DNA from: an uncultured Gammaproteobacteria bacterium
GTDB lineage: Bacteria > Patescibacteriota > Microgenomatia > UBA8517
NCBI GenBank assembly: GCA_965231135.1
Contig: OZ246419.1
Location: 184,754-248,753, forward strand
Direction: 5' to 3'
Length of the DNA: 64,000 nucleotides
The position numbers were made by a program, and so were the translations under genes. The number at the start of each line of letters is the position of its first letter. Positions within the stretch are counted from its first letter, which is position 1. This document shows positions 10,749 to 49,930 of the stretch, in pieces. The notes below the pieces were generated by a model. It saw only the letters and a list, made by a program, of their open reading frames with translations. It made no database searches and was not told the DNA's origin.

Positions 10749-10780
10749 TATAATTAGCACTGGGAATATATGGCTGCTAA
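10749..10780 (+). promoter_or_regulatory. a -10 element (TATAAT) plus CIRCE-like operator no. 3 (TTAGCACTG-N9-GGCTGCTAA) that overlaps the dnaJ start codon
   Basis: The left half-site matches the CIRCE consensus at 8 of 9 positions. The element spans the dnaJ ATG at 10770. Confidence 0.5.
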
Positions 10781-12677: not shown

Positions 12678-12706
12678 TTGACTTCAAAAAGTAATAAGCG
12701 TAAACT
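12678..12706 (+). promoter_or_regulatory. sigma70-like promoter TTGACT-17-TAAACT upstream of nusA
   Basis: Good -35 and -10 hexamers with 17-nt spacing. No other plus-strand gene lies upstream. Confidence 0.45.
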
Positions 12707-12717
12707 ACTTTTAGTTA

Positions 12718-12741
12718 GGTGGGAAAGTTCCCGCCTTTTTT
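12718..12741 (+). terminator. intrinsic-terminator-like hairpin plus U6 in the nusA leader (candidate attenuator)
   Basis: GGUGGGA-AAGU-UCCCGCC forms a 7-bp stem with a 4-nt loop, followed by UUUUUU. It ends 12 nt before the nusA ATG. Confidence 0.5.
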
Positions 12742-12752
12742 ATTAACACATT

Positions 12753-13841
12753 ATGCCAGCACAAACAGCTAGAACAGAATTTGCACAAGCACTTAAAGCA
12801 GTTGCTACCCAAACAGGGCTTGATGCAGATGTAATTATTGAACAAGTAAAGCAAGCAATAATTGCTGCATATAAGCGAGATGCAAGAGAAGAAGGAATTG
12901 ATACAGAAATTAAAAATTATGATGTCGAGATTCATCCAGTAAGCGGTGAAATGAGAATTTTTGCATCAGATGTCGAAACTGGAGAAAACAAAGAAGACGT
13001 AACTCCTCCTGGATTTGGACGTATTGCTGCACAAACTGCAAAACAAGTAATTCATCAGAAACTTCGAGAAGCAGAACACGGAGCAGTTATTGCACAATTT
13101 GAAGGGAAAGTGGGAACTTTGGTTTCAGGAATGGTTCTTCGCTTTGATGGCGGAGATGTGCGAGTTGAAATTGGGAAAGCTGAAGGAATAATGCCTTATG
13201 ACAAAAGGATTCCAAACGAAAGATTAAATCTTAACCAAAGATTAACTTTTTTATTTGAAGAAGTAAAAGAAACTCCACGAGGACAAGAAATAATATTATC
13301 GCGCAATTCTGAAGAGTTTGTAAAGAAATTATTTGAACGAGAAGTTCCTGAAATCTCCTCAGGCAATGTACAGATAAAAGCAATTTCAAGAGAAGCTGGA
13401 ATTCGTACTAAAATCGCCGTTTATTCAAATCAAAGCGGCGTTGATCCAGTTGGAAGCTGTGTTGGGCAAAAAGGAGTGCGTGTACAGGCTGTTACAAATG
13501 AACTTGGAGGAGAGCGAATTGATATTATAGCTTGGACTGATGAAGAAAAAGATTTTGTAAAAGCATCACTTTCTCCAGTTGAAGTAATTTCAATTAAACT
13601 TGAGAAGAAAGAGAAAAAAGCTACTGTTGAAGTAGCTGCCGATGCACTTTCAATTGCAATTGGAGCAAACGGGCAAAATGTACGCCTTGCATCGAAGTTA
13701 ACTGGATACGAGATAGACATAAAAGCTGACGAAACGAAGAAAGCTGAAGAGGTACATGAAGAGCTAAAAGAAGAAAAACCAAAAGAAAGCGATGAGAAAA
13801 AAGAAGAGTTTTTAGCAAAAGAAGAAACTCAAGAGAAATGA
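12753..13841 (+). CDS. nusA: transcription termination/antitermination factor NusA
   Basis: N-terminal domain, S1 domain and two KH domains (VGSCVGQKGVRVQAVTNELGGERIDII). Confidence 0.9.
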   Translation: MPAQTARTEFAQALKAVATQTGLDADVIIEQVKQAIIAAYKRDAREEGIDTEIKNYDVEIHPVSGEMRIFASDVETGENKEDVTPPGFGRIAAQTAKQVIHQKLREAEHGAVIAQFEGKVGTLVSGMVLRFDGGDVRVEIGKAEGIMPYDKRIPNERLNLNQRLTFLFEEVKETPRGQEIILSRNSEEFVKKLFEREVPEISSGNVQIKAISREAGIRTKIAVYSNQSGVDPVGSCVGQKGVRVQAVTNELGGERIDIIAWTDEEKDFVKASLSPVEVISIKLEKKEKKATVEVAADALSIAIGANGQNVRLASKLTGYEIDIKADETKKAEEVHEELKEEKPKESDEKKEEFLAKEETQEK

Positions 13842-35778: not shown

Positions 35779-38700
35779 ATGGCAAATAAACAAAATCGCC
35801 GCAATTTTGGCAGAACAGAAAACAATTTACCTGAGCTTGATTTGTCTTTGGTTCAAAGACAATCTTGGGATTGGTTTTTAAAAGAAGGAATTTCGGAAGA
35901 ACTTACAAATATTTCTCCAGTTGAAGATTTTGCAGGAAAAAATTGGGAACTTTCTTTTGGTAAACATACTCTTGAAGCCTCTCAAGTTACCCCAAAAGAA
36001 GCAAGAGAAAAAGGAATAACATACTCAACTCCATTTAAAGTCGAAACAACACTCACAAATAAAAGAACAGGAGCATCTGTCACACAGGAAGTTTTCTTTG
36101 GAAATATTCCACAAATGACAACTGTTGGAACATTTATTATTAATGGAATTGAAAGAACTGTTATTAACCAAATCGTTCGAAGCCCAGGAGCATATTTCTC
36201 AGGAACTTTGGATGCAGCAAGCGGCCGTATGCTTTATAAAGCAGAAATAAGACCACTTCATCACGGAAGCTGGCTTGAATTTGAAACTGGACGAAACGAT
36301 GTTATTTCAGCTCGCATTGATCGACGCCGAAAGGTAAATGCCGCAACCATACTTCGCGCTCTTGGAATTTATTCAAATGATGAAATTACAAGAATTTTTG
36401 CTGATGTGAATAAAGACGGAAATCATAATTATGTACAAAAGACTATTGAAAAAGATCCAACAAGAACAAGAGAAGATGCACTTCTTGAAATTTACAAGAA
36501 ACTTCGACCTGGAGAACCAGCTCTTTTGGATAATGCAGAAACACTTTTCCATAACCTTTTCTTTGATAACCGCCATTACGACTTAGGAAAAGTTGGAAGA
36601 TATAAAATTAATAAGAGATTAGGACTTAATGTTGAAAATAATAAACAAAACTGGGTACTTACAAAAGATGATATTGTCCAAACACTTCATTATTTAATTG
36701 GACTTCAAAATGGAATTGGACGAGTTGATGATATTGACCATCTTTCAAACAGACGCCTTCGATGTGTCGGGGAACTTGTTGCAACTCATGCATTTCGTAC
36801 AGGACTTTTAAGACTTGAAAGATCTATAAAAGAGAAAATGTCTTTGGTTTCTCAAGAAGAAAAACCAAATCCATCAGCTTTAATTAACGCAAGACCATTA
36901 ATCGCTTCTTTGAATGAATTTTTCAGAAGCAATCAGCTTTCAACAATACTTGATAATACAAATCCACTTTCAGAAATAGATAATTTACGAAGAGTATCTG
37001 TTTTAGGACCTGGAGGAATTAATCGAGAACGTGCGAGCTTTTCAATCCGAGACGTTAATCCTTCTCAATATGGAAGAATTGATCCTGTCAGGTCTCCAGA
37101 AGGAATGAACATTGGACTTGTTACTTATTTAACTCTTTATGCACGTGTAAACGAATTTGGATTTATTGAGACACCTTACAAAAAAGTTGATAATAGAAAA
37201 ATTACTAATGAAATTGTTTATTTAACTGCTGACGATGAAGAGAAATATTACATTACTCACAACGGAATTAATATTGATGACAGCGGAAAAATAACAGACG
37301 ACAGAGTTGCTATCCGATATGCAGGAAACTTTACAGAAGGATCTTCAAAGTTGGTTCAATATATCGATTTGACACCAAGGCAGGTATTTGGAGCATCTGC
37401 ATCTTTAATTCCTTTCCTTGACCACGATGAAGGAAACCGTGCTCTTATGGGAAGTAACATGCAATGTCAGGCTGTTCCACTTGTTGCGCCAAGCTCACCA
37501 GTTGTTGGAACAGGAATGGAAGCGACTGTTGCCTCTTCAATGGGAAGAGTTGTAAAAGCTGAATATCCAGGAACTGTTTCTTTTGTTGATGCAGACAAAA
37601 TTGAAATTAAACTTGATAAGCAAAGCTTGTCAGCTAAAGCTGATAAAAAATTGCCTGACGATGCTGTTTTGTCTAGAGATGGTAAAACAATTACTTATTA
37701 TTTGACTAAATTCTGGAGAACTTCACAATCAACTTGTTATAACCAGAAAGCTAAAGTAGTTCTCGGACAGAAATTAAACCCTGGAGACTTAATAATTGAT
37801 GGACCTGCTACAGAAGACGGAGAACTTGCACTGGGTCAAAATTTAGTTGTAGCTTATGCATCAATTTCCGGATACGGATTTGAAGATGCAATTTTGATTT
37901 CTGACAGAATAGTTAAGGATGACCTACTTACTTCAATTAACATTCGTGAATATACAGCTGACGTTGTTGAAACAAAACTTGGACCTGAAGTTGTTACAAA
38001 AGATATTCCAAACGTTTCTGAAGACCAATTAGCTAATTTGGCAAGTGATGGAATTGTTGTTGTCGGAGCTGAAGTTCATCCAAATGACATCTTGGTCGGA
38101 AAAATTGCACCAAAAGGTGAAATGGAACTTACTGCAGAAGAAAGACTTCTTCGTGCTATCTTTGGAGAGAAAGCAAGAGAAGTCCGAGATACATCACTTC
38201 GAGTGCCACACGGAGAAGAAGGAATTGTTATTGATGTACAAGTACTTAGCAAAGAAAAAGGAGATGAACTTGCACCTGGAGTAATATCTTCTGTAATTGT
38301 TAAAGTTGCACAACTTCGTAAAGTAACTGTAGGAGACAAAATTGCAGGGCGACATGGAAACAAAGGTGTTATTTCAAAAATAATGCCTGAAGCTGATATG
38401 CCTTACTTGCCAGATGGAACTCCAGTTGATTTGGTTATATCACCTCTTTCGGTACTTGCTCGTATGAATCTTGGACAATTACTCGAATGTCATTTGGGAT
38501 GGGCACTTGATAAGAATCATTCGAAAGCAAGCGTACCTGTCTTTGATAAGATTCCAGAAAGCAAGATTCACGATGAACTTAAAGAGGCTGGACTTCCAGT
38601 TTCTGGAAAAACAAGACTTATTGATGGAAGAACTGGAGAGGCACTTTCTGAAGATACAGTTGTTGGAATTGGATACATCATGAAGCTTAAGCACATGATT

Positions 38701-41700
38701 GAAGATAAGACACATGCACGTAGCACTGGTCCATATTCTCTTGTTACACAACAACCACTTGGAGGAAAAGCACAAATGGGAGGACAAAGACTTGGAGAAA
38801 TGGAAGTCTGGGCACTTGAAGCACATAGAGCAGCTCATACTTTGCAGGAAATGTTGACAATAAAATCTGATGATATTGTAGGACGCGCTGCAGCATTTGG
38901 AGCAATTGTTAAAGGACAGGAAATTCCTGAAGCTAAAATACCTGAAAGCTTTAAAGTATTGGTTCGAGAACTTAATGCACTTGGACTTGCAATTGATGTT
39001 GATGGAACAATGGCAGCAGTTACTGAAGAGCACACAACTGATGACGGAGTAGTAATCCAAGAAAAGAAACAACCAGTTACTGATCCACTTTTAAAGCTTC
39101 GCGAACTCGAAGATCTTAAATCTTTGCAAATTAAACTTGCCAGCGAAGGTGAAATAAGATCCTGGAGCCGAGGAGAAGTTACAAAACCAGAGACTATAAA
39201 CTACAGAACACTTAAACCTGAAAAAGACGGACTTTTTGATGAGAGAATATTTGGTCCAACACGCGACTGGGAATGTTACTGTGGAAAGTATAAAAGAATT
39301 CGTTATAAGGGAGTAATTTGCGATAAATGTGGAGTTGAAGTTACAGAAAGCAGAGTTCGACGAGAGAGAATGGGACATATTGCACTTGCAGCTCCTGTAG
39401 TTCATGTATGGTTTTTCAAAGGAGCACCAAGCAAAGTATCTTTACTTCTTGATTTGCCTCCTCGCGCTATTGAGCAAGTTGTCTATTTTGCAAGATATAT
39501 TGTTATGAGCGTTGATGATAAAAAGAGAAAAGAAGCAATTGATGTCTTAATAAAGACTCGAGAAGAAAAAATTAAAGAAACTCGAGAGATTTCTGCAGAA
39601 CGCCGAGAACTTATAAAACAAGACGGAGAAGATCGTAAAGGAAAGATAGCAAACAGAATCAAAGATAAAGAACAAGCAGCTCTTGCAATCAGCGAAGTTG
39701 ATCTTGATGTACGTAAGAAAGAAACTACTTTGGTTGAAGAAGAAAAAGCAACTATTGAGAAAACAACCGAACTTTTTGATCGCATGACTGATTTGGTTAA
39801 GAAAATTAGTCCTTTTGGATTTTTATCTGAGGATGAATACGATCAGCTTTCAACTTATGATGTATCTGATTTTCTTGAAGTAAAAATGGGAGCAGAAGCT
39901 CTTCTTATAGCCTTAAGCAAACTTAATTTGGATGAACTTTCAAAGAGTTTGCGAGCAGAACTTGAAGGATTGCAAGGAAAAGGTGCAAGATATTTGAAAG
40001 TTGCAAAAAGACTTAAGCTTATTGACGGACTTCGTGAGGCAAAAGTAAGCCCAACAAGCGTTATTTTGAAAGTAATCCCAATACTTCCACCAGATTTACG
40101 ACCAATGGTCCAACTTGCTGGAGGAAGATTTGCAACTTCTGACTTGAATGATTTATATAGACGCGTAATAAATAGAAATAACAGACTTAAGCATCTTATT
40201 GGCCTTGGTGCACCAGATATTATTTTAAGGAATGAAAAAAGAATGTTGCAGGAAGCTGTTGACTCTTTAATTGATGCATCTCAGCGAAAAGCTATGCGAC
40301 GTGGACGAGGAAGACTTGCACTTCGATCACTTTCTGACATGCTTAAAGGAAAGCAAGGAAGATTTAGAGCAAATCTTTTGGGTAAGCGTGTGGATTACTC
40401 CGGACGTTCAGTTATTATTGTTGGGCCTGAACTTAATTTGAATCAATGTGGACTTCCAAAGGAAATGGCGCTGGAAATGTTTAAGCCATTTGTACTTCGA
40501 GAAGTTATTAAGCGAGAAATTGCACCTAATGTGAAATCTGCAAAGAATTTACTTGAACGCCGACCACCAGAAGTGTTTGATATTTTGGAAGAAATTACAA
40601 AAGATCATCCAGTGTTACTTAATCGTGCACCAACACTTCATAAACTTGGAATTTTGGCATTTTACCCAGTTTTAATTGAAGGAAGCGCTATCAGACTTCA
40701 TCCAGCAGTATGTTCTGGGTTTGGAGCTGACTTTGACGGAGATCAAATGGCAGTACATGTCCCACTTTCTAAGAAAGCAATCGAAGAAGCTAAGACTCTT
40801 ATGATGTCTGATAAGAATTTACTTAAGACATCTGACGGATCGCCTGTTGCAACGCCCGCTTCAAAGGAAATGGCGCTTGGAGTTTATTATTTCACAAGTT
40901 TAGATACAAGAATGAAAGCTTCTGAAACAATTTTTGCTGACAAAGCTGAAGCAATATTTGCTTATCAAATTGGAAAAGTAGCTTTAAGACAACAAATCAA
41001 GGTCAAAGTTGATAATGAAGTAAATGAAACAACTGTTGGACGCATTTTATTTAATGAAATACTTCCAGAAGGATTTAGATTTGTAAACGAAAACGTTTCT
41101 TCTGGAATTATTAAAGATTTAGTCACTGAAGCTTATACAAAAGTATCTCAAGAGAGACTTGTAAAACTTATTGATGATATTAAGAACCTTGGATTTGTTG
41201 GAGGAACAATTTCAGGACTTTCATTTGCGGTGTCGGATGCTGCAATATTTGAAGGAAAAGCAAAAATTATTAAGGAAGCAGATAAAAAAGTCGACGAAAT
41301 TGAAAAAAGTTTCCATCAAGGTCTTATTACAAACGAAGAAAAGAAAAGAAGCATTCAACAAATCTGGATTGAAACAACTGAAGAAATTGCTGACAAAACC
41401 TGGAATGTAATACCTGCTGATTCACCAATTCGCACAGTTATTGATGCTAAAGTGGGACGCACTTCCCGTGACCAGATTAAGCAGCTTGGTGGAATGAGAG
41501 GTTTGGTCGTTGATCCGCTTGGAAAAATCGTTGAACTTCCTGTCAAAAGCAACTTTAGAGAAGGGCTTTCAGTTTTTGAATATGTTGCATCAGGACGCGG
41601 ATCTCGTAAAGGACTTACTGATACAGCTTTGAAAACAGCTGATGCAGGATATCTTACACGTCGATTAGTTGATGTAACTCATGATGTATTAATTCGTGAA

Positions 41701-42780
41701 GAAGACTGCGGAACAAAAGACGGAATTCTTATTAAAAAATCAGTACGAGGAGGAAGTTTCTACAAGAGAATTTTTGGAAGATTTGATACAAACGGAGAAC
41801 TTATTGATGAAAAGCGAGCAAAAGAACTGGCAGATGATGCAAATGTTACAGAATTTGTAGTTCGTTCCCCTCTTACATGTAAGACAAGATTTGGAGTTTG
41901 CCAGAAGTGTTATGGATGGGACCTTTCAAATAAACAGGTTGTAGAACTTGGAATGCCAATTGGAGTTATTGCGGCACAATCAATTGGAGAACCTGGAACT
42001 CAGCTTACACTTAGAACCAAACATAGCGGAGGAGTTGTTGGAGCTGACGTTACACAAGGACTTCCAAGAGTTGAAGAGTTATTTGAATCTCGTATTCCAA
42101 AAACAGTATCGCCAATTTCTGAAATAGCTGGAAAAGTATCTATCAAAGAGAGCGAAGACGGGAATGTTGTTAAAGTCACAAGTGTTAATACCAAACCAAA
42201 AGAAGAGCGAGAATATATTATCGCAAAGACAAACAAGATTAGTGTTGAGGATGGACAACTTATCGATGCAGGAACACAACTAGCTAGCGGATACCTTGAT
42301 ATTAAAGAAATATTACAAGTACGAGGACTTGGAGCAGCACAAGAATATTTGGTAAATGAATTACAGGCAGTTTATGAATCACAGGGAATTTCAATTAATG
42401 ATCGCCATTTTGAAATCATTGTCCGCAAGATGTGTGATACAGTCCGCATTTTGACAAGCGGAGACAGCAGATTCTTGCCAGAAGAGCTTACTGATAAATC
42501 AACATTTGAAGAAGAAGTTGAAAAAGTTATCGCATCAGGCGGAGAAGCAGCAACTGCAAGACAAATTATACTTGGAGTCACAAAGAGAGCTTTGTACACA
42601 AACAGCTGGCTATCTAGCGCATCTTTCGAACAGACAACTGATGTTTTGGCCGAGTCAGCACTAGAAGGAAGCAAAGATCGCTTACTTGGACTTAAAGAGA
42701 ATGTTATTATTGGCCGCCTAATTCCAATTGATCCAAAGAGAGCGGCTCTTCATGGACAAGCTGAGCCTGCTGCTGTATAA
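35779..42780 (+). CDS. rpoBC: fused DNA-directed RNA polymerase beta-beta' subunit (rpoB-rpoC in one ORF)
   Basis: The ORF is continuous. The beta C terminus ([27 protein letters not shown]...[17 protein letters not shown]) joins, through a linker of about 45 aa, the beta' N terminus ([35 protein letters not shown] plus the Zn finger CYCGKYKR...CDKCGVEV). The start is taken at the first ATG (MANKQ); the track ORF begins 27 nt upstream at a TTG. Confidence 0.9.
37616..37646 (+). repeat. in-frame copy of the 31-nt intergenic palindromic element, inside rpoB
   Basis: ATAAGCAAAGCTTGTCAGCTAAAGCTGATAA encodes [10 protein letters not shown]. It matches the rpsO-pnp spacer element at 30 of 31 positions. 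Confidence 0.6.
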
Positions 42781-46141: not shown

Positions 46142-46414
46142 ATGGAAAATATTTCTAGAAGAGGAGTCGGATTTAGATTGGATAGTCGCAAAATTGGCGA
46201 AGAAGTTACTATTGTTCCAAGAAGTGTTGATCAATTGACAATGAATTATGTTGTCTTGGTTGTGGATCGTAAAGATTCAAAAAAACAACCAGGTAATCCC
46301 ATGATTAAGGTGAGGTTTGCGAATCAGGGTGGTAGTGGTTTTTATCTTGGCGGAGGTACGGCAGCCGTACCAGTTAAAACTTCATTTATAGGTCTTTCTG
46401 AAGAAGATTTCTAA
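46142..46414 (+). CDS. hypothetical 90-aa protein (inserted between fusA and tuf)
   Basis: No motif. It starts 3 nt after the fusA stop. Confidence 0.35.
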   Translation: MENISRRGVGFRLDSRKIGEEVTIVPRSVDQLTMNYVVLVVDRKDSKKQPGNPMIKVRFANQGGSGFYLGGGTAAVPVKTSFIGLSEEDF

Positions 46415-46440: not shown

Positions 46441-46941
46441 ATGAAAAGATCTTCAATTCCTAAGGAATTAGAACGTGAAGTTCTAGTTGAAGCTGGTCAC
46501 AGATGTGCGATTCCTACTTGTCAGAGAACTCCCGTAGAAATAGCTCATATAGATCCATGGTTTAAAGTGAAAGAGCATAGATTTGAAAATTTGATTGCTC
46601 TTTGTCCAAATTGTCATGATAGATATGATAAAAAACATGAAATTGATAGGAAATCTATGCTTCGATATAAAGCTAATCTTTCGGTAATTAATAATAGATA
46701 TGGCGACCTAGAGAAAAGAATACTTACACTTTTTGCTGAAAGTCCAAATGATGAATTTGTTTGGGTTGTTGGAGGATTGGATATATTATTAATGTATTTA
46801 TTGAGAGATGGATTATTAGTTCCTTCAGGTAAGGATAGTGGAGTTATACTTTCCGGTATTCCTTCTGCTAAAGAATATCGTTTGACTACAAAAGGCAGAG
46901 GGTTTGTTAATAACTGGGTTTCACCAAGAAAATTAAGTTGA
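46441..46941 (+). CDS. HNH endonuclease
   Basis: EAGHRCAIPTC...EIAHIDPW...NLIALCPNCHDRYD is a Cys4 HNH core. A C-terminal domain of about 80 aa follows. Confidence 0.7.
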   Translation: MKRSSIPKELEREVLVEAGHRCAIPTCQRTPVEIAHIDPWFKVKEHRFENLIALCPNCHDRYDKKHEIDRKSMLRYKANLSVINNRYGDLEKRILTLFAESPNDEFVWVVGGLDILLMYLLRDGLLVPSGKDSGVILSGIPSAKEYRLTTKGRGFVNNWVSPRKLS

Positions 46942-46952
46942 TTAATTGCCTG

Positions 46953-46981
46953 TTGACAGGCTTAAACTAGCCTCATATAAT
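46953..46981 (+). promoter_or_regulatory. consensus sigma70 promoter TTGACA-17-TATAAT for tuf
   Basis: Perfect hexamers at 46953-46958 and 46976-46981. A leader of about 70 nt with a small hairpin (ccctagaattaggg) follows. Confidence 0.6.
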
Positions 46982-47055
46982 ACCTACAGTTATCTCGGCA
47001 AATGTCGGGATTTACTTTTCCCTAGAATTAGGGTAATATACAAGAATAAATAAAT

Positions 47056-48252
47056 ATGGCAGGAGATGTAAAACAACATTTTGATCGCAGCAAACCACAT
47101 GTCAACATTGGTACTATTGGCCACGTTGATCACGGAAAAACAACTTTAACTTCAGCAATTGCTACAGTTTTATCAAAGCAACCAGGAAACACATCAAAAG
47201 CTATGGCTTATGACCAAATCGATTCTTCTCCTGAAGAAAAAGCAAGAGGCGTCACCATTAACATTACGCACGTCGAATACGAAACAAAGAAAAGACATTA
47301 TGCTCATATCGATGCTCCAGGACATGCAGATTATATTAAGAACATGATTACAGGTGCAGCTCAAATGGACGGAGCAATCTTGGTTGTCTCAGCACCAGAT
47401 GGAGCAATGCCACAAACAAGAGAACACGTAATCCTTGCAAGACAAGTCAACGTTCCAGCACTTGTTGTAGCACTTAACAAAATTGATATGGTTCAAGATG
47501 AAGAGCTTGTACAATTGGTTGAAGATGATATCAGAAGCTTGCTTGAGAAATATCAATATCCAAAAGATACTCCAATAGTTAGAGTTTCAGCTCTTAAAGC
47601 ACTTGAAGGAGATAAAGATGCTGAAGCGCAGATCATGAAATTAATGGATACAGTTGATGAATATATTCCAGATCCAGTTCGAGAAACAGATAAACCTTTC
47701 TTAATGCCTGTTGAAGATGTCTTCTCTATAAAGGGGCGAGGAACAGTTGTTACCGGACGCGTTGAACGTGGAATGCTTAAAGTAAATGAAGAAGTTGAGA
47801 TTGTTGGAATTAAAGCAACTGCAAAATCAGTTGTTACGGGAATTGAAATGTTCCGCAAAACACTTGATGAAGCACAAGCTGGAGATAACACAGGACTTTT
47901 ACTTCGAGGAATTGAAAAAGATGATATAGAACGCGGACAAGTTTTGGCAAAGCCAGGCTCAATTACACCTCATACAGAATTTGATGCTGAAGTTTATATT
48001 CTTAGTAAAGAAGAGGGCGGACGCCATACACCATTCTTTACAGGATACAAACCACAATTTTACATTAGAACAGCTGATGTAACTGGAGAAGTCACACTTA
48101 ATGAAGGGGTTGAAATGATAGTGCCTGGAGATAATGCCAAAATGAAAGTTAAATTAATAGTCCCTGTAGCTATGGAAGAGGGACTACGCTTTGCAATTCG
48201 AGAAGGAAGCAAAACAGTAGGCGCTGGTGTTATCACCAAGATTATAGCCTAA
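47056..48252 (+). CDS. tuf: elongation factor Tu
   Basis: [19 protein letters not shown] and NKIDMV motifs, 398 aa. Confidence 0.95.
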
Positions 48253-48269
48253 GCACTTTAAAACGATTT

Positions 48270-48581
48270 ATGCCAGTTGGAAGACTTAGAGTCAAATTAA
48301 AAGCATATGATGCTCGCGTTCTAGATGAAGCAGCAAGTAAAATACTTGAGACTGCTATTGCAACCGGCGCAAAAATCGTTGGACCAATCCCCTTACCTAC
48401 AAAAAGAAGTATAGTTTCTATTGTGCCATCAACCTCAAGAGGAATTAAAAATCATCAAGATCATTATGAAATGTTAGTTCATAAAAGATTAATTGACATT
48501 GTGGATCCATCTGATCGTACAATTGATTCATTATCTAATTTAGATCTTCCAGCAGGTGTCTCCATTGAGATTAAGATGTAA
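48270..48581 (+). CDS. rpsJ: 30S ribosomal protein S10
   Basis: RLRVKLKAYD...GPIPLPT matches S10. Confidence 0.9.
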   Translation: MPVGRLRVKLKAYDARVLDEAASKILETAIATGAKIVGPIPLPTKRSIVSIVPSTSRGIKNHQDHYEMLVHKRLIDIVDPSDRTIDSLSNLDLPAGVSIEIKM

Positions 48582-48587
48582 GATTGC

Positions 48588-49022
48588 TTATATCTTAAAA
48601 TCCTTCTTAATTTTATTAAGTATTTTTTCTTTAATGATTGGAAAATTGACTATTTCTTGAGTGTATTGTTCTTTATTTAGGTCCGAAATTAGATTTCCAA
48701 AGCCAGACTTGCTTTGTTCTGATTTCTCTGGTCTAATTCCTGCAAAACCAACTGCTCCACAGTGAGGGCATGGTCCTTCTATCCACTCTTTGGCAGTACA
48801 TTTCCAGCATTTACCACATCTACAACAATCTCTTAATATGCATTCATCCGGACTGTTTGTATCTTTTATGCCACAAAAAGGTAAAACCTCTTTTGGTTTT
48901 GTCATGGTAGTTACAACTTTATTGCAATCTGGACAGACGCTTCCTGCTGGGAGAAATGCCCCGCATATTTGACAGAAAGATGTGTTGTCTAGTTTTTCTG
49001 AAGACATTTGATGATTATACAA
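48588..49022 (-). CDS. cysteine-rich small metal-binding protein (15 Cys) on the opposite strand to the flanking ribosomal genes
   Basis: CQIC...CPDC form a zinc-ribbon pair. A dense CILRDCCRCGKCWKC...CPHC cluster follows; it contains CxxCxxC...CP. Confidence 0.45.
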   Translation of the reverse strand: MYNHQMSSEKLDNTSFCQICGAFLPAGSVCPDCNKVVTTMTKPKEVLPFCGIKDTNSPDECILRDCCRCGKCWKCTAKEWIEGPCPHCGAVGFAGIRPEKSEQSKSGFGNLISDLNKEQYTQEIVNFPIIKEKILNKIKKDFKI

Positions 49023-49101
49023 TAAATCGAACTTAAATTCTATTATTATAGGTTTAAATAGAGTATTTTATTTTTTTGTAACGCATAGCATTTAGCCTTG
49101 C

Positions 49102-49130
49102 TTGCAAGCTTGCCTTCAGTTTGATATAAT
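49102..49130 (+). promoter_or_regulatory. promoter TTGCAA-17-TATAAT with an extended -10 (TGaTATAAT) for the rplC operon
   Basis: The -10 is at 49125-49130, preceded by TG at 49122-49123. Confidence 0.5.
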
Positions 49131-49201
49131 TTCACTTAATAAATGAGGAGGGGAACCGCCTAACTAACCTCGAGGTAGTCTTGATTTGAAACCAGTAACT
49201 G

Positions 49202-49224
49202 GGTGTCGACGAGACACCTTTTTT
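49202..49224 (+). terminator. hairpin ggtgtc-gacga-gacacc plus U6 in the rplC leader (candidate attenuator)
   Basis: 6-bp GC-rich stem and TTTTTT, lying 38 nt upstream of the rplC ATG. An orphan AGGAGG and a 6-codon mini-ORF (49143-49163) lie upstream in the same leader. Confidence 0.45.
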
Positions 49225-49261
49225 ATTGTCTCTAGCTAGGCATGTTAGCGTTACGACTAAT

Positions 49262-49930
49262 ATGATAAATAAAGTCCTTGGAATTAAAAAAGAAATGGGA
49301 GCTACTTTTAACGAAGGAGTAAGAGTTCCTGTGACTAAAGTTGCAATTGAAAATTGTGTTGTGACTGAAGTCAAAACACAAGACCGTGACGGCTACTGGT
49401 CAGTCCAACTTGGTGTAGGACACAAGAAAGCAAAGAATATTACCAAACCAATGAAAGGCCATCTTCTCAAAACAAAAGACGCAAAAGAAACTCCAAAATA
49501 TTTACCAAGATTTATTAAAGAAATAAGAACTCAAGAAGAACCTACGGAAAAAGTCGGAAATGAAATAAAAGCTTCCGACATTTTTGTTTCTGGAGATAAG
49601 GTTAGCGTTACTGGAGTTTCTAAGGGAAAAGGGTTTGCTGGAGGAGTTAAAAGGTGGCACTTTAGAGGAGGAAGCAAGACTCATGGACAATCAGACCGTT
49701 GGAGAGCACCAGGATCAATTGGACAAGGAACAACTCCAGGAAGAGTTTATAAAGGCAAACACATGGCAGGACACATGGGAGTAGAACAAATAAAAGTTAA
49801 AGGACTCAAAATAGTTTCAGTTGATGCAGAAAAGAATGAAATACTTGTAAGCGGAGCAATTCCAGGAACAGTCGGAGGTTTAGTAATTCTTGAAAGAATT
49901 GGAGAAAGAAAGGAACAAGCAAATGCTTAA
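49262..49930 (+). CDS. rplC: 50S ribosomal protein L3
   Basis: MINKVLGIKKEMG...VPVTKV...GKGFAGGVKRW. The start is taken at the internal ATG at 49262. Confidence 0.9.
   Translation: MINKVLGIKKEMGATFNEGVRVPVTKVAIENCVVTEVKTQDRDGYWSVQLGVGHKKAKNITKPMKGHLLKTKDAKETPKYLPRFIKEIRTQEEPTEKVGNEIKASDIFVSGDKVSVTGVSKGKGFAGGVKRWHFRGGSKTHGQSDRWRAPGSIGQGTTPGRVYKGKHMAGHMGVEQIKVKGLKIVSVDAEKNEILVSGAIPGTVGGLVILERIGERKEQANA

Follow-up and report, generated by a model that had tools for sequence, protein, structure and literature searches.

What lies between the ribosomal protein genes rpsJ and rplC, and why a terminator stands directly in front of rplC, are the questions raised by a 64-kb stretch of contig OZ246419.1 (64,000 nucleotides (nt), referred to here as the window). 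The window belongs to a Woesebacteria-like Patescibacteria genome; the nearest L3 proteins among species representatives are those of Candidatus Woesebacteria, with 56–58% identity. The interval between the two genes, which measures 8–35 nt in most other bacteria among 160 L3 loci, is here an operon boundary that holds two separate items, a minus-strand gene for a cysteine-rich (Cys-rich) protein and the promoter and leader of rplC. On balance, the conservation of the leader points to a regulated transcription attenuator, most likely of the known feedback type. The Cys-rich open reading frame (ORF) is, judged by its substitution pattern and its relatives, a real and conserved gene, and its product belongs to a zinc-ribbon family that is new and lacks annotation, and that is encoded at a fixed place within the S10 cluster.

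The initial annotation had placed an extended -10 promoter, an orphan AGGAGG, a six-codon mini-ORF and a hairpin followed by six U in front of rplC. The coordinates of all of these, and of the rplC ATG, are correct on re-reading (Table 1). Within the window, consensus matches of this kind are no commoner than in shuffled sequence (16 promoter-like matches against 17.7, and 5 terminator-like matches against 3.5), so the case for real sites rests on their conservation in relatives. The leader has been compared across 13 loci (the window, L001, L165, L002, L003, L163, L082–L086, L171 and L173). The layout of promoter, a first hairpin (P1) and terminator upstream of rplC is found in all 13, and the L3 proteins of the relatives are 49–64% identical to that of the window; a further locus, L088, resembles the group but is aberrant. 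The motif TTGC-N18/19-TGnTATAAT is kept in all 12 relatives with upstream sequence, which bears out the claim that rplC has its own extended -10 promoter.

The comparison with the close relative L001 shows where the conservation lies. From the -35 box to the rplC ATG the two loci are 75% identical, against 69% for the rplC coding sequence and 60% for the Cys-rich gene, and the spacer from the Cys-rich ATG to the -35 box is only 32% identical. The terminator hairpin and its loop are the same in both. The leader is kept with or without the Cys-rich gene, and is present both with rpsJ directly upstream (L082 and L086) and with other genes in between (L002, L003 and L083). In L171 and L173 an FtsJ gene runs into the -35 box of the rplC promoter and the leader is still there. 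When the 160 L3 loci are scanned strictly for a hairpin plus U-tract, terminators immediately before rplC turn up almost exclusively in the Microgenomates relatives, and not in the other ~140. No Rfam family reaches its gathering threshold for the leader in the window or in 19 related loci.

Folding the leader and comparing it with relatives had been proposed as a check, and the check supports both hairpins. With a plain MAFFT alignment as input, RNAalifold finds the terminator as eight pairs, four of them with compensatory changes (for example, U-A in six members and C-G in six), and 94% of its cells are paired in the structural alignment. P1 is found in 13/13 loci as a core G[A/U]GG ... CC[U/A/G]C with a loop of 15–21 nt. 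This core covaries, as GAGG/CCUC in five members, GUGG/CCAC in seven and GUGG/CCGC in one, and in the 10 members where only a single 5' partner is possible, all 10 match. In a manual structural alignment, which was fitted to the structure so that its figures lean in favour of P1, the share of paired cells is 90.1%, compared with 81.2% in shuffles (0/500) and 40–58% in slid controls, with a covariation score of 0.36 against 0.20 in shuffles (0/500); since the 13 sequences are mutually related, such shuffle counts and the z-scores below overstate their independence. The sequence of the P1 loop and the linker is also kept, as GGUUCGUC...AUAA in six loci and as GCCUAACUAA in the window and L001.

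The linker between the two hairpins provides a possible switch. When the RNA preceding the 3' strand of the terminator is folded, the pairing of the linker with the terminator 5' strand and loop is more stable than that of shuffled linkers in 12/13 members (mean z=-1.14; L083 z=-3.7). The outer helix of this pairing is GGAG:CUCY in L082/L085 and CAAG:CUUG in L083/L084. The indications of an antiterminator competing with the terminator are suggestive in the relatives and weak in the window.

The position of the terminator carries the functional argument. The distance from the end of the U-tract to the rplC ATG is 38 nt in the window, 19–25 nt in L002, L163 and L082, and 11–13 nt in L003, L086, L088 and L171. 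No promoter fits into the shortest of these gaps, so all rplC transcripts must pass the terminator, which makes it an attenuator and not the end of an operon. The attenuator layout described in the initial annotation thus stands, with a conserved promoter and a terminator placed so that rplC needs read-through. In the mechanism that we propose, the dedicated promoter would drive rplC and the downstream ribosomal protein (r-protein) genes through a ~90-nt leader. The nascent leader would fold P1, followed either by the terminator hairpin and U-tract or, in most relatives, by a competing helix in which the linker pairs with the terminator 5' strand and loop. Expression of the whole downstream cluster would then depend on read-through. 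Control would most likely be autogenous, in that a downstream-encoded r-protein in excess over ribosomal RNA (rRNA) would bind the P1/linker region and favour termination, possibly with NusA. By analogy only, the effector may be an operon-encoded r-protein such as L4.

Several observations weigh against the attenuator reading, in addition to the relatedness of the sequences and the fitted alignment. P1 is short (4–6 bp), and its register relative to the GGAGGUG-like box differs between two subtypes. MAFFT with RNAalifold on the full leaders recovers the terminator alone and not P1, and RNAalifold on a plain alignment of the truncated linkers finds no consensus antiterminator helix. The antiterminator candidate of the window is no better than shuffles (z=+0.5), and its CCAG/CUGG helix overlaps two base pairs of the terminator. 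Local alignment of the leaders to E. coli 23S rRNA gives no score above shuffles.

A possible but less probable reading is that the element is a fixed insulator or leaky terminator without a sensor. It would end the tuf-rpsJ transcript, shield rplC and pass a constant fraction of the transcripts from the strong rplC promoter, with P1 serving as a 5' stabilising stem-loop. Such a role would suit the lack of a separate terminator between rpsJ and the rplC promoter in L082 and L086, and of a convincing one in the window, as well as the nil antiterminator signal in the window itself. The tuf and nusA genes of the window likewise have promoter-proximal hairpins followed by U-rich tracts, and L149 has only a promoter, an AT-rich hairpin and U8, without the P1 box. 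A plain stem-loop would not, however, need the conservation that has been observed in the P1 loop and linker, nor a linker-terminator pairing that exceeds shuffles in nearly every member, and a strong promoter before an unregulated terminator would be wasteful for very highly expressed genes. Regulation is preferred over fixed termination because of the conserved P1 loop and linker, the linker-terminator pairing and the precedents in other bacteria.

A complete promoter-to-terminator unit with conserved internal sequence could also be an independent small RNA gene, whose ~85–90-nt product acts in trans and whose adjacency to rplC is incidental or secondary. This is improbable, since the element stands directly upstream of rplC in the same orientation in 13/13 loci, even where genes for an FtsJ-type methyltransferase or a toxin-antitoxin pair are inserted upstream. 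Where the U-tract lies 11–13 nt from the ATG, rplC has no other promoter, and no known small RNA family is matched.

A little less probable still is translation-coupled attenuation, in which ribosomes on a near-leaderless mini-ORF over P1 would choose between terminator and antiterminator and so sense translational capacity. An ATG- or GTG-started ORF of 5–11 codons with its in-frame stop inside the P1 loop is present in all 14 leaders; the start lies a few nt from the inferred transcription start, and leaderless mRNAs are seemingly widespread in this genome. ORFs this short are, however, expected by chance in DNA of 36% GC. Their peptides are not conserved among the leaders, and the variable sites in L082–L085 are as frequent at codon positions 1 and 2 as they are at position 3, although ORFs of this length are weak evidence either way. 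In L086, a 3-nt frame-preserving deletion removes a codon from the GGAGGUG box and gives a different 9-codon peptide, yet the RNA motif GUUCGUC is kept. A leader-peptide attenuator has been rejected on the same grounds: an unconserved peptide, no third-position bias and the different peptide of L086. The orphan Shine-Dalgarno (SD) sequence has likewise been rejected as a conserved 30S-binding box, since the GGAGG core is altered in 5/13 members (L084, L085, L086, L163 and L171) and most window genes have no SD; GGAGGTG occurs nowhere else in the window. The AGGAGG and the mini-ORF noted in the initial annotation are therefore present as described but do not deserve the weight given to them, and both are probably by-products of the RNA motif.

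Other origins for the leader sequence have also been considered and set aside. By eye, the window P1 resembles nt 180–215 of 23S rRNA (GGGGAAC...CUAAGUACCCCGAGG), but this region was not singled out when all leaders were aligned locally with 23S rRNA. The words that the leaders have in common with E. coli 23S rRNA are within chance, namely the 8-mer GGUGGUUC at 2396 and CGAGAGGA of the sarcin-ricin loop, the latter in L171 only. A BoxA/nut-like reading of the 5' end (CACUUAAYAAA) has been dropped; the motif is found only in the window, L001 and L165.

Terminators close to rplC are also found with other leaders. Daviesbacteria-like loci have a different rplC leader that also ends in a terminator before rplC (L004 ~2190–2500; L005 ~2300–2500; L090 ~2330–2500). 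L004 and L005 have a long conserved block in common (UUUCAGUAGAUCGCGCGUCCCCCUUCGCUAAAGCUACGGAGGGACAAGUCGGAU...), and L090 shares only the start of this block (UUUCAGUGAUUGUGCGUCC...). The Shapirobacteria-like L011, and also L095, L141 and L142, have rplC-proximal terminators with other upstream sequences. No Rfam match has been obtained for the Daviesbacteria-like or Shapirobacteria-like rplC leaders.

The second item, the Cys-rich gene, is separately transcribed from its own predicted minus-strand TATAAT. The initial annotation described a 144-aa (amino acid) protein with 15 cysteines; the minus-strand ORF does extend over 48588–49022 when counted from a TTG, which gives this length. The real start is most likely the ATG at 49007, which gives 139 aa, because a minus-strand TATAAT lies 6 nt upstream of this ATG, the TTG at 49022 lies just upstream of the TATAAT, and the layout in L001 is alike. 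NCBI calls the identical 139-aa product, and the protein sequence counts 13 cysteines and not 15. The TATAAT-before-ATG layout is also present in L001, L163, L173 and L174, and it implies that the mRNA is leaderless or near-leaderless.

The differences between the window gene and its L001 homologue fall 35/27/70 by codon position, and 26/59 identical residues are written with different codons, which indicates purifying selection on the protein. A word-indexed search across 5.8 billion proteins returned, besides the protein itself, a single relative, P0002 (49% identity). P0002 is encoded between rpsJ and rplC on the opposite strand, in the same place as the window gene, and 12/13 cysteines are kept between the two. 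A profile search, which had been suggested as a check, returned 29 proteins at E<=1e-3 (~28 of them distant relatives) among 1.84 billion representatives, so the ORF is not unconserved. P38, C45, C61, C62, C64, C80, P81 and C83 are invariant in the 29-member alignment. The family signature is P..LP.CG ... R.CC.CG..W......W..G.CP.CGA.G, with six invariant cysteines, and most members also carry the N-terminal CWSCG...CxC ribbon.

The motifs predict a protein of two zinc ribbons, C12/C15/C25/C28 and C62/C64/C80/C83. The knuckles are C12-x2-C15 ... C25-x2-C28 and C62-x-C64 ... C80-P-x-C83-G, and the second pair is invariant in the 29 sequences. The AlphaFold2 (AF2) model has short strands at these knuckle sites. 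A third Cys4 site, C45/C61/C67/C70, may exist in the window protein. The initial annotation had also seen an Fe-S-like CxxCxxC (C64, C67, C70) beside a zinc-ribbon pair. The zinc-ribbon pair holds, while a 4Fe-4S ferredoxin site (CxxCxxCxxxCP) has been rejected since the actual spacing is C64-x2-C67-x2-C70-x9-C80-P; moreover, C67 is confined to the window protein (P0001) and its closest relative, P0002, and many members have T/S/A/V/W in place of C70. Searches against Pfam and NCBIfam give nothing above cut-off for the protein or the family.

The loci of nine family members have been looked up for synteny. In 7/9 (the window, L001, L163/164, L165/166, L171/172, L173 and L174) the gene is convergent with rpsJ and precedes rplC, in agreement with the earlier description of a gene that splits rpsJ from rplC. 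Identity to the window protein drops from 48% to 29% in step with the divergence of EF-Tu, S10 and L3, which argues for vertical inheritance with losses and not for repeated insertion. The stop codons of rpsJ and the Cys-rich gene are 6 nt apart in the window, without a terminator between them, so the two transcripts must overlap in antisense. The Cys-rich 3' end overlaps the convergent rpsJ by 47 nt in three relatives (L163 5001–5769, L173 4001–4760 and L174 1264–2011). A gene for an FtsJ/TlyA-type methyltransferase (PF01728) stands between the Cys-rich gene and rplC in 4 of the 7 syntenic loci. The two as an obligate pair have been rejected, because the 64-kb window has no such methyltransferase gene and L003 has one without the Cys-rich gene.

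The conserved position is the reason for proposing a link to translation: the product may be a zinc-binding protein that contacts nucleic acid and is connected with translation or the ribosome. A stronger version is doubtful: that Woesebacteria-like Patescibacteria have in this protein a component of the translation apparatus peculiar to their lineage, and that its convergent, at times overlapping, position against rpsJ is functional, for example through antisense coupling to tuf-rpsJ. On this version, the protein might be an additional one bound to the ribosome, a partner of the FtsJ/TlyA-type rRNA methyltransferase, whose gene is often its divergent neighbour, or a dedicated trans-acting regulator that binds the adjacent rplC leader. 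Two findings weigh against the overall reading of the gene. First, 2/9 members are sited elsewhere, one beside an integrase and a TraG-like gene and the other near a Trp-repressor-like gene. Second, the protein has no fold or family match beyond generic zinc ribbons, and no curated ribbon family or solved ribbon is above threshold. It is very improbable, and largely refuted, that the ORF arose by chance or antisense, or is a recent mobile-element gene unrelated to the locus: it is the sole minus-strand gene amid a long plus-strand run, one distant homologue adjoins an integrase and a TraG-like gene, and varied cargo gathers in the rpsJ-rplC gap of relatives, but the third-position substitution excess, the invariant Cys and Pro of the family, the shared locus with divergence that follows EF-Tu, S10 and L3, and an AF2 core that is confident given the family alignment (pLDDT 88–96, residues 11–40 and 51–90) all stand against it.

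The homologue beside the integrase, P0030, is the most distant member (L167/L168 4108–5333). Its gene lies directly downstream of a phage-type integrase gene and near a gene for a TraG/DUF87-like ATPase, and, in contrast to the syntenic members, it probably belongs to an integrative element. In this lineage the rpsJ-rplC gap is a hot spot for insertions (L002 316–2329; L083 1363–2143; L163 3842–4931; L003 1836–2384). The cargo in relatives includes a YafQ-type toxin with its partner, a retropepsin-like ORF, small minus-strand ORFs and the FtsJ/TlyA-type methyltransferase.

Table 1. Features of the rpsJ-rplC interval and flanking genes (window coordinates)
Feature	Position	Strand	Details
tuf	47056-48252	+	ORF list
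rpsJ (S10)	48270-48581	+	Pfam Ribosomal_S10, E=2.1e-27; closes the tuf-rpsJ unit
Cys-rich double zinc-ribbon gene	48588-49007	-	139 aa, 13 Cys; NCBI hypothetical protein VG895_04005
-10 hexamer TATAAT of the Cys-rich gene	49019-49014	-	6 nt upstream of ATG 49007; read from sequence
rplC-operon promoter	49102-49130	+	-35 TTGCAA 49102-49107, 17 nt, -10 TATAAT 49125-49130; TG 49122-49123 (extended -10)
rplC leader (5' untranslated region, ~125 nt)	49137-49261	+	transcription start inferred
Mini-ORF MRRGTA	49143-49163	+	ATG 49143 to TAA 49161-49163, 6 codons; probably incidental to the RNA motif
Hairpin P1	49144-49172	+	GAGG 49145-49148 : CCUC 49168-49171, 19-nt loop; from folding; contains the orphan AGGAGG
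AGGAGG (orphan SD-like)	within 49146-49151	+	read from sequence
Candidate, weak antiterminator hairpin CCAG-UAA-CUGG	49192-49202	+	overlaps the first two G of the terminator stem
Intrinsic terminator	49201-49224	+	GGGTGTC-GACGA-GACACCT 49201-49219: 7-bp GC-rich stem, 5-nt loop; then U6 to 49224
rplC (L3)	49262-49930	+	Pfam Ribosomal_L3 and alignment with relatives; heads the downstream r-protein run

The window has a GC content of 36%, and nearly all of its genes are on the plus strand. The gene order around the locus is fused rpoB-rpoC, rpsL, rpsG, fusA, a 90-aa ORF, an HNH endonuclease ORF, tuf, rpsJ, the Cys-rich ORF (minus strand), rplC, rplD, rplW, rplB, and rpsS onward. The spacing between tuf and rpsJ is 17 nt, and the upstream sequence of rplC holds no SD. 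The fused rpoB-rpoC (35779–42780) is one ORF of 2,333 aa with all Rpb2 (beta) domains followed by the Rpb1 (beta') domains. The HNH endonuclease ORF (46441–46941; Pfam HNH, E=1.7e-8) and the unannotated 90-aa ORF (46142–46414) in the fusA/tuf gap are a further insertion into the str/S10 cluster. The SD motif is missing from most window genes, and SD-like motifs are found mainly before internal genes of the r-protein run. At several genes a TATAAT lies <=25 nt upstream of the ATG, for example at rpsL (42789) and at the genes at 10770, 29462 and 30817. TATAAT hexamers so near the ATG, together with the few SDs, suggest that mRNAs with no leader or a very short one are frequent in this genome.

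Two other upstream regions in the window have been examined. The tuf promoter region (46953–47055) has a perfect sigma-70-type TTGACA, 17 nt, TATAAT, followed by a hairpin (46992–47011) and then UUUACUUUU. The promoter and the hairpin, the latter with compensatory changes, are found again before tuf in L001, L165, L163 and L174, as is the UUUACUUU tail. In L171 the TATAAT, the hairpin and a UUUAGUUU tail are kept, and the available stretch ends short of the -35 box. The cluster would seem to have a second conserved leader element here. The region 12678–12752 upstream of nusA (12753–13841; Pfam NusA_N, KH_5) has a promoter-like TTGACT-17-TAAACT and a terminator, AGGUGGGAAAGUUCCCGCCU plus U6, that ends 11 nt before the ATG. 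No Rfam model, the rimP-leader model included, matches the nusA leader even at E<=10.

How r-protein operons control themselves is known in detail for E. coli and a few Firmicutes. If the attenuator reading is true, the conserved rplC leader would mean that these reduced genomes retain RNA-based feedback on ribosome synthesis. It would also mean that the classical S10 operon is divided differently here, rpsJ going with tuf and the leader standing before rplC. The leader, at ~90 nt, is small enough for direct in vitro tests. The Cys-rich gene stands for a conserved, unannotated protein family whose place is fixed within the most conserved bacterial gene cluster, and its product may reasonably be considered a candidate translation factor specific to the lineage. 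Established knowledge is overturned by neither item, and both are concrete, testable additions.

Among known proteins, the Cys-rich family is closest to small zinc-ribbon proteins such as RNA polymerase subunit P/Rpo12, eL40, Nop10 and those with rubredoxin-type knuckles, with matches that are short, generic and below significance. The best solved-structure match is a 29-residue zinc ribbon in archaeal RNA polymerase subunit P (E=0.008). The Cys-rich family differs from these proteins in its particular signature, in the additional N-terminal ribbon that is usually present and in its constant place in the genome. A literature search found nothing on this gene, nor on r-protein leaders in the Candidate Phyla Radiation/Patescibacteria.

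For the leader, the nearest functional precedent is the S10 leader of E. coli, in which L4, with NusA, causes termination and also represses translation (PMC3616713). The r-protein leader RNAs of E. coli are mostly confined to Gammaproteobacteria, and that of S10 is confined there (PMC3616713). Both the E. coli and the window leaders are promoter-proximal leaders of a big r-protein cluster, with an upstream hairpin and an intrinsic terminator a few tens of nt before the first cistron. The E. coli leader precedes rpsJ, whereas the window leader follows rpsJ, which belongs to the tuf unit, and precedes rplC. The E. coli leader is 172 nt long, and the window leader is shorter, at ~90 nt to the U-tract. 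No sequence or structure homology is detectable between them, in that nothing relevant in Rfam is found at E<=10 over 48950–49350, with the presence of the S10 model in Rfam 15 unverified. By analogy, the leader seems to do the work of the E. coli S10 leader from a position one gene further downstream.

Attenuation by alternative terminator and antiterminator structures has been described for L20 in B. subtilis (PMC1865079), and several Firmicute r-protein leaders have been found purely by comparative genomics (PMC1913097). The window leader resembles the Firmicute attenuator leaders (L20/infC; L10, L13, L19 and L21) in having a sensor helix and a terminator in the 5' untranslated region of an r-protein operon. 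L10_leader (RF00557), the best Rfam match, has been rejected: it scores 15.9 bits where the gathering score is 44 (E=2.7), and such a leader would be expected upstream of rplJ, not of rplC. A survey of premature terminators describes a 'multiform' rpsL-leader and a rimP/nusA-leader (PMC2965389). These are likewise lineage-variable attenuators before operons of the translation apparatus, in which conservation is highest in the terminator and the sensor upstream of it varies from clade to clade; they belong to operons other than rplC, and Patescibacteria are not covered as far as the searched text of the survey goes (PMC2965389). The upstream region of nusA in the window resembles the published rimP/nusA-leader attenuator, with a GGG...CCC stem. 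Judged by its sequence and predicted folding, the rplC leader fits the generic class of r-protein leaders and attenuators as a new, Patescibacteria-specific member.

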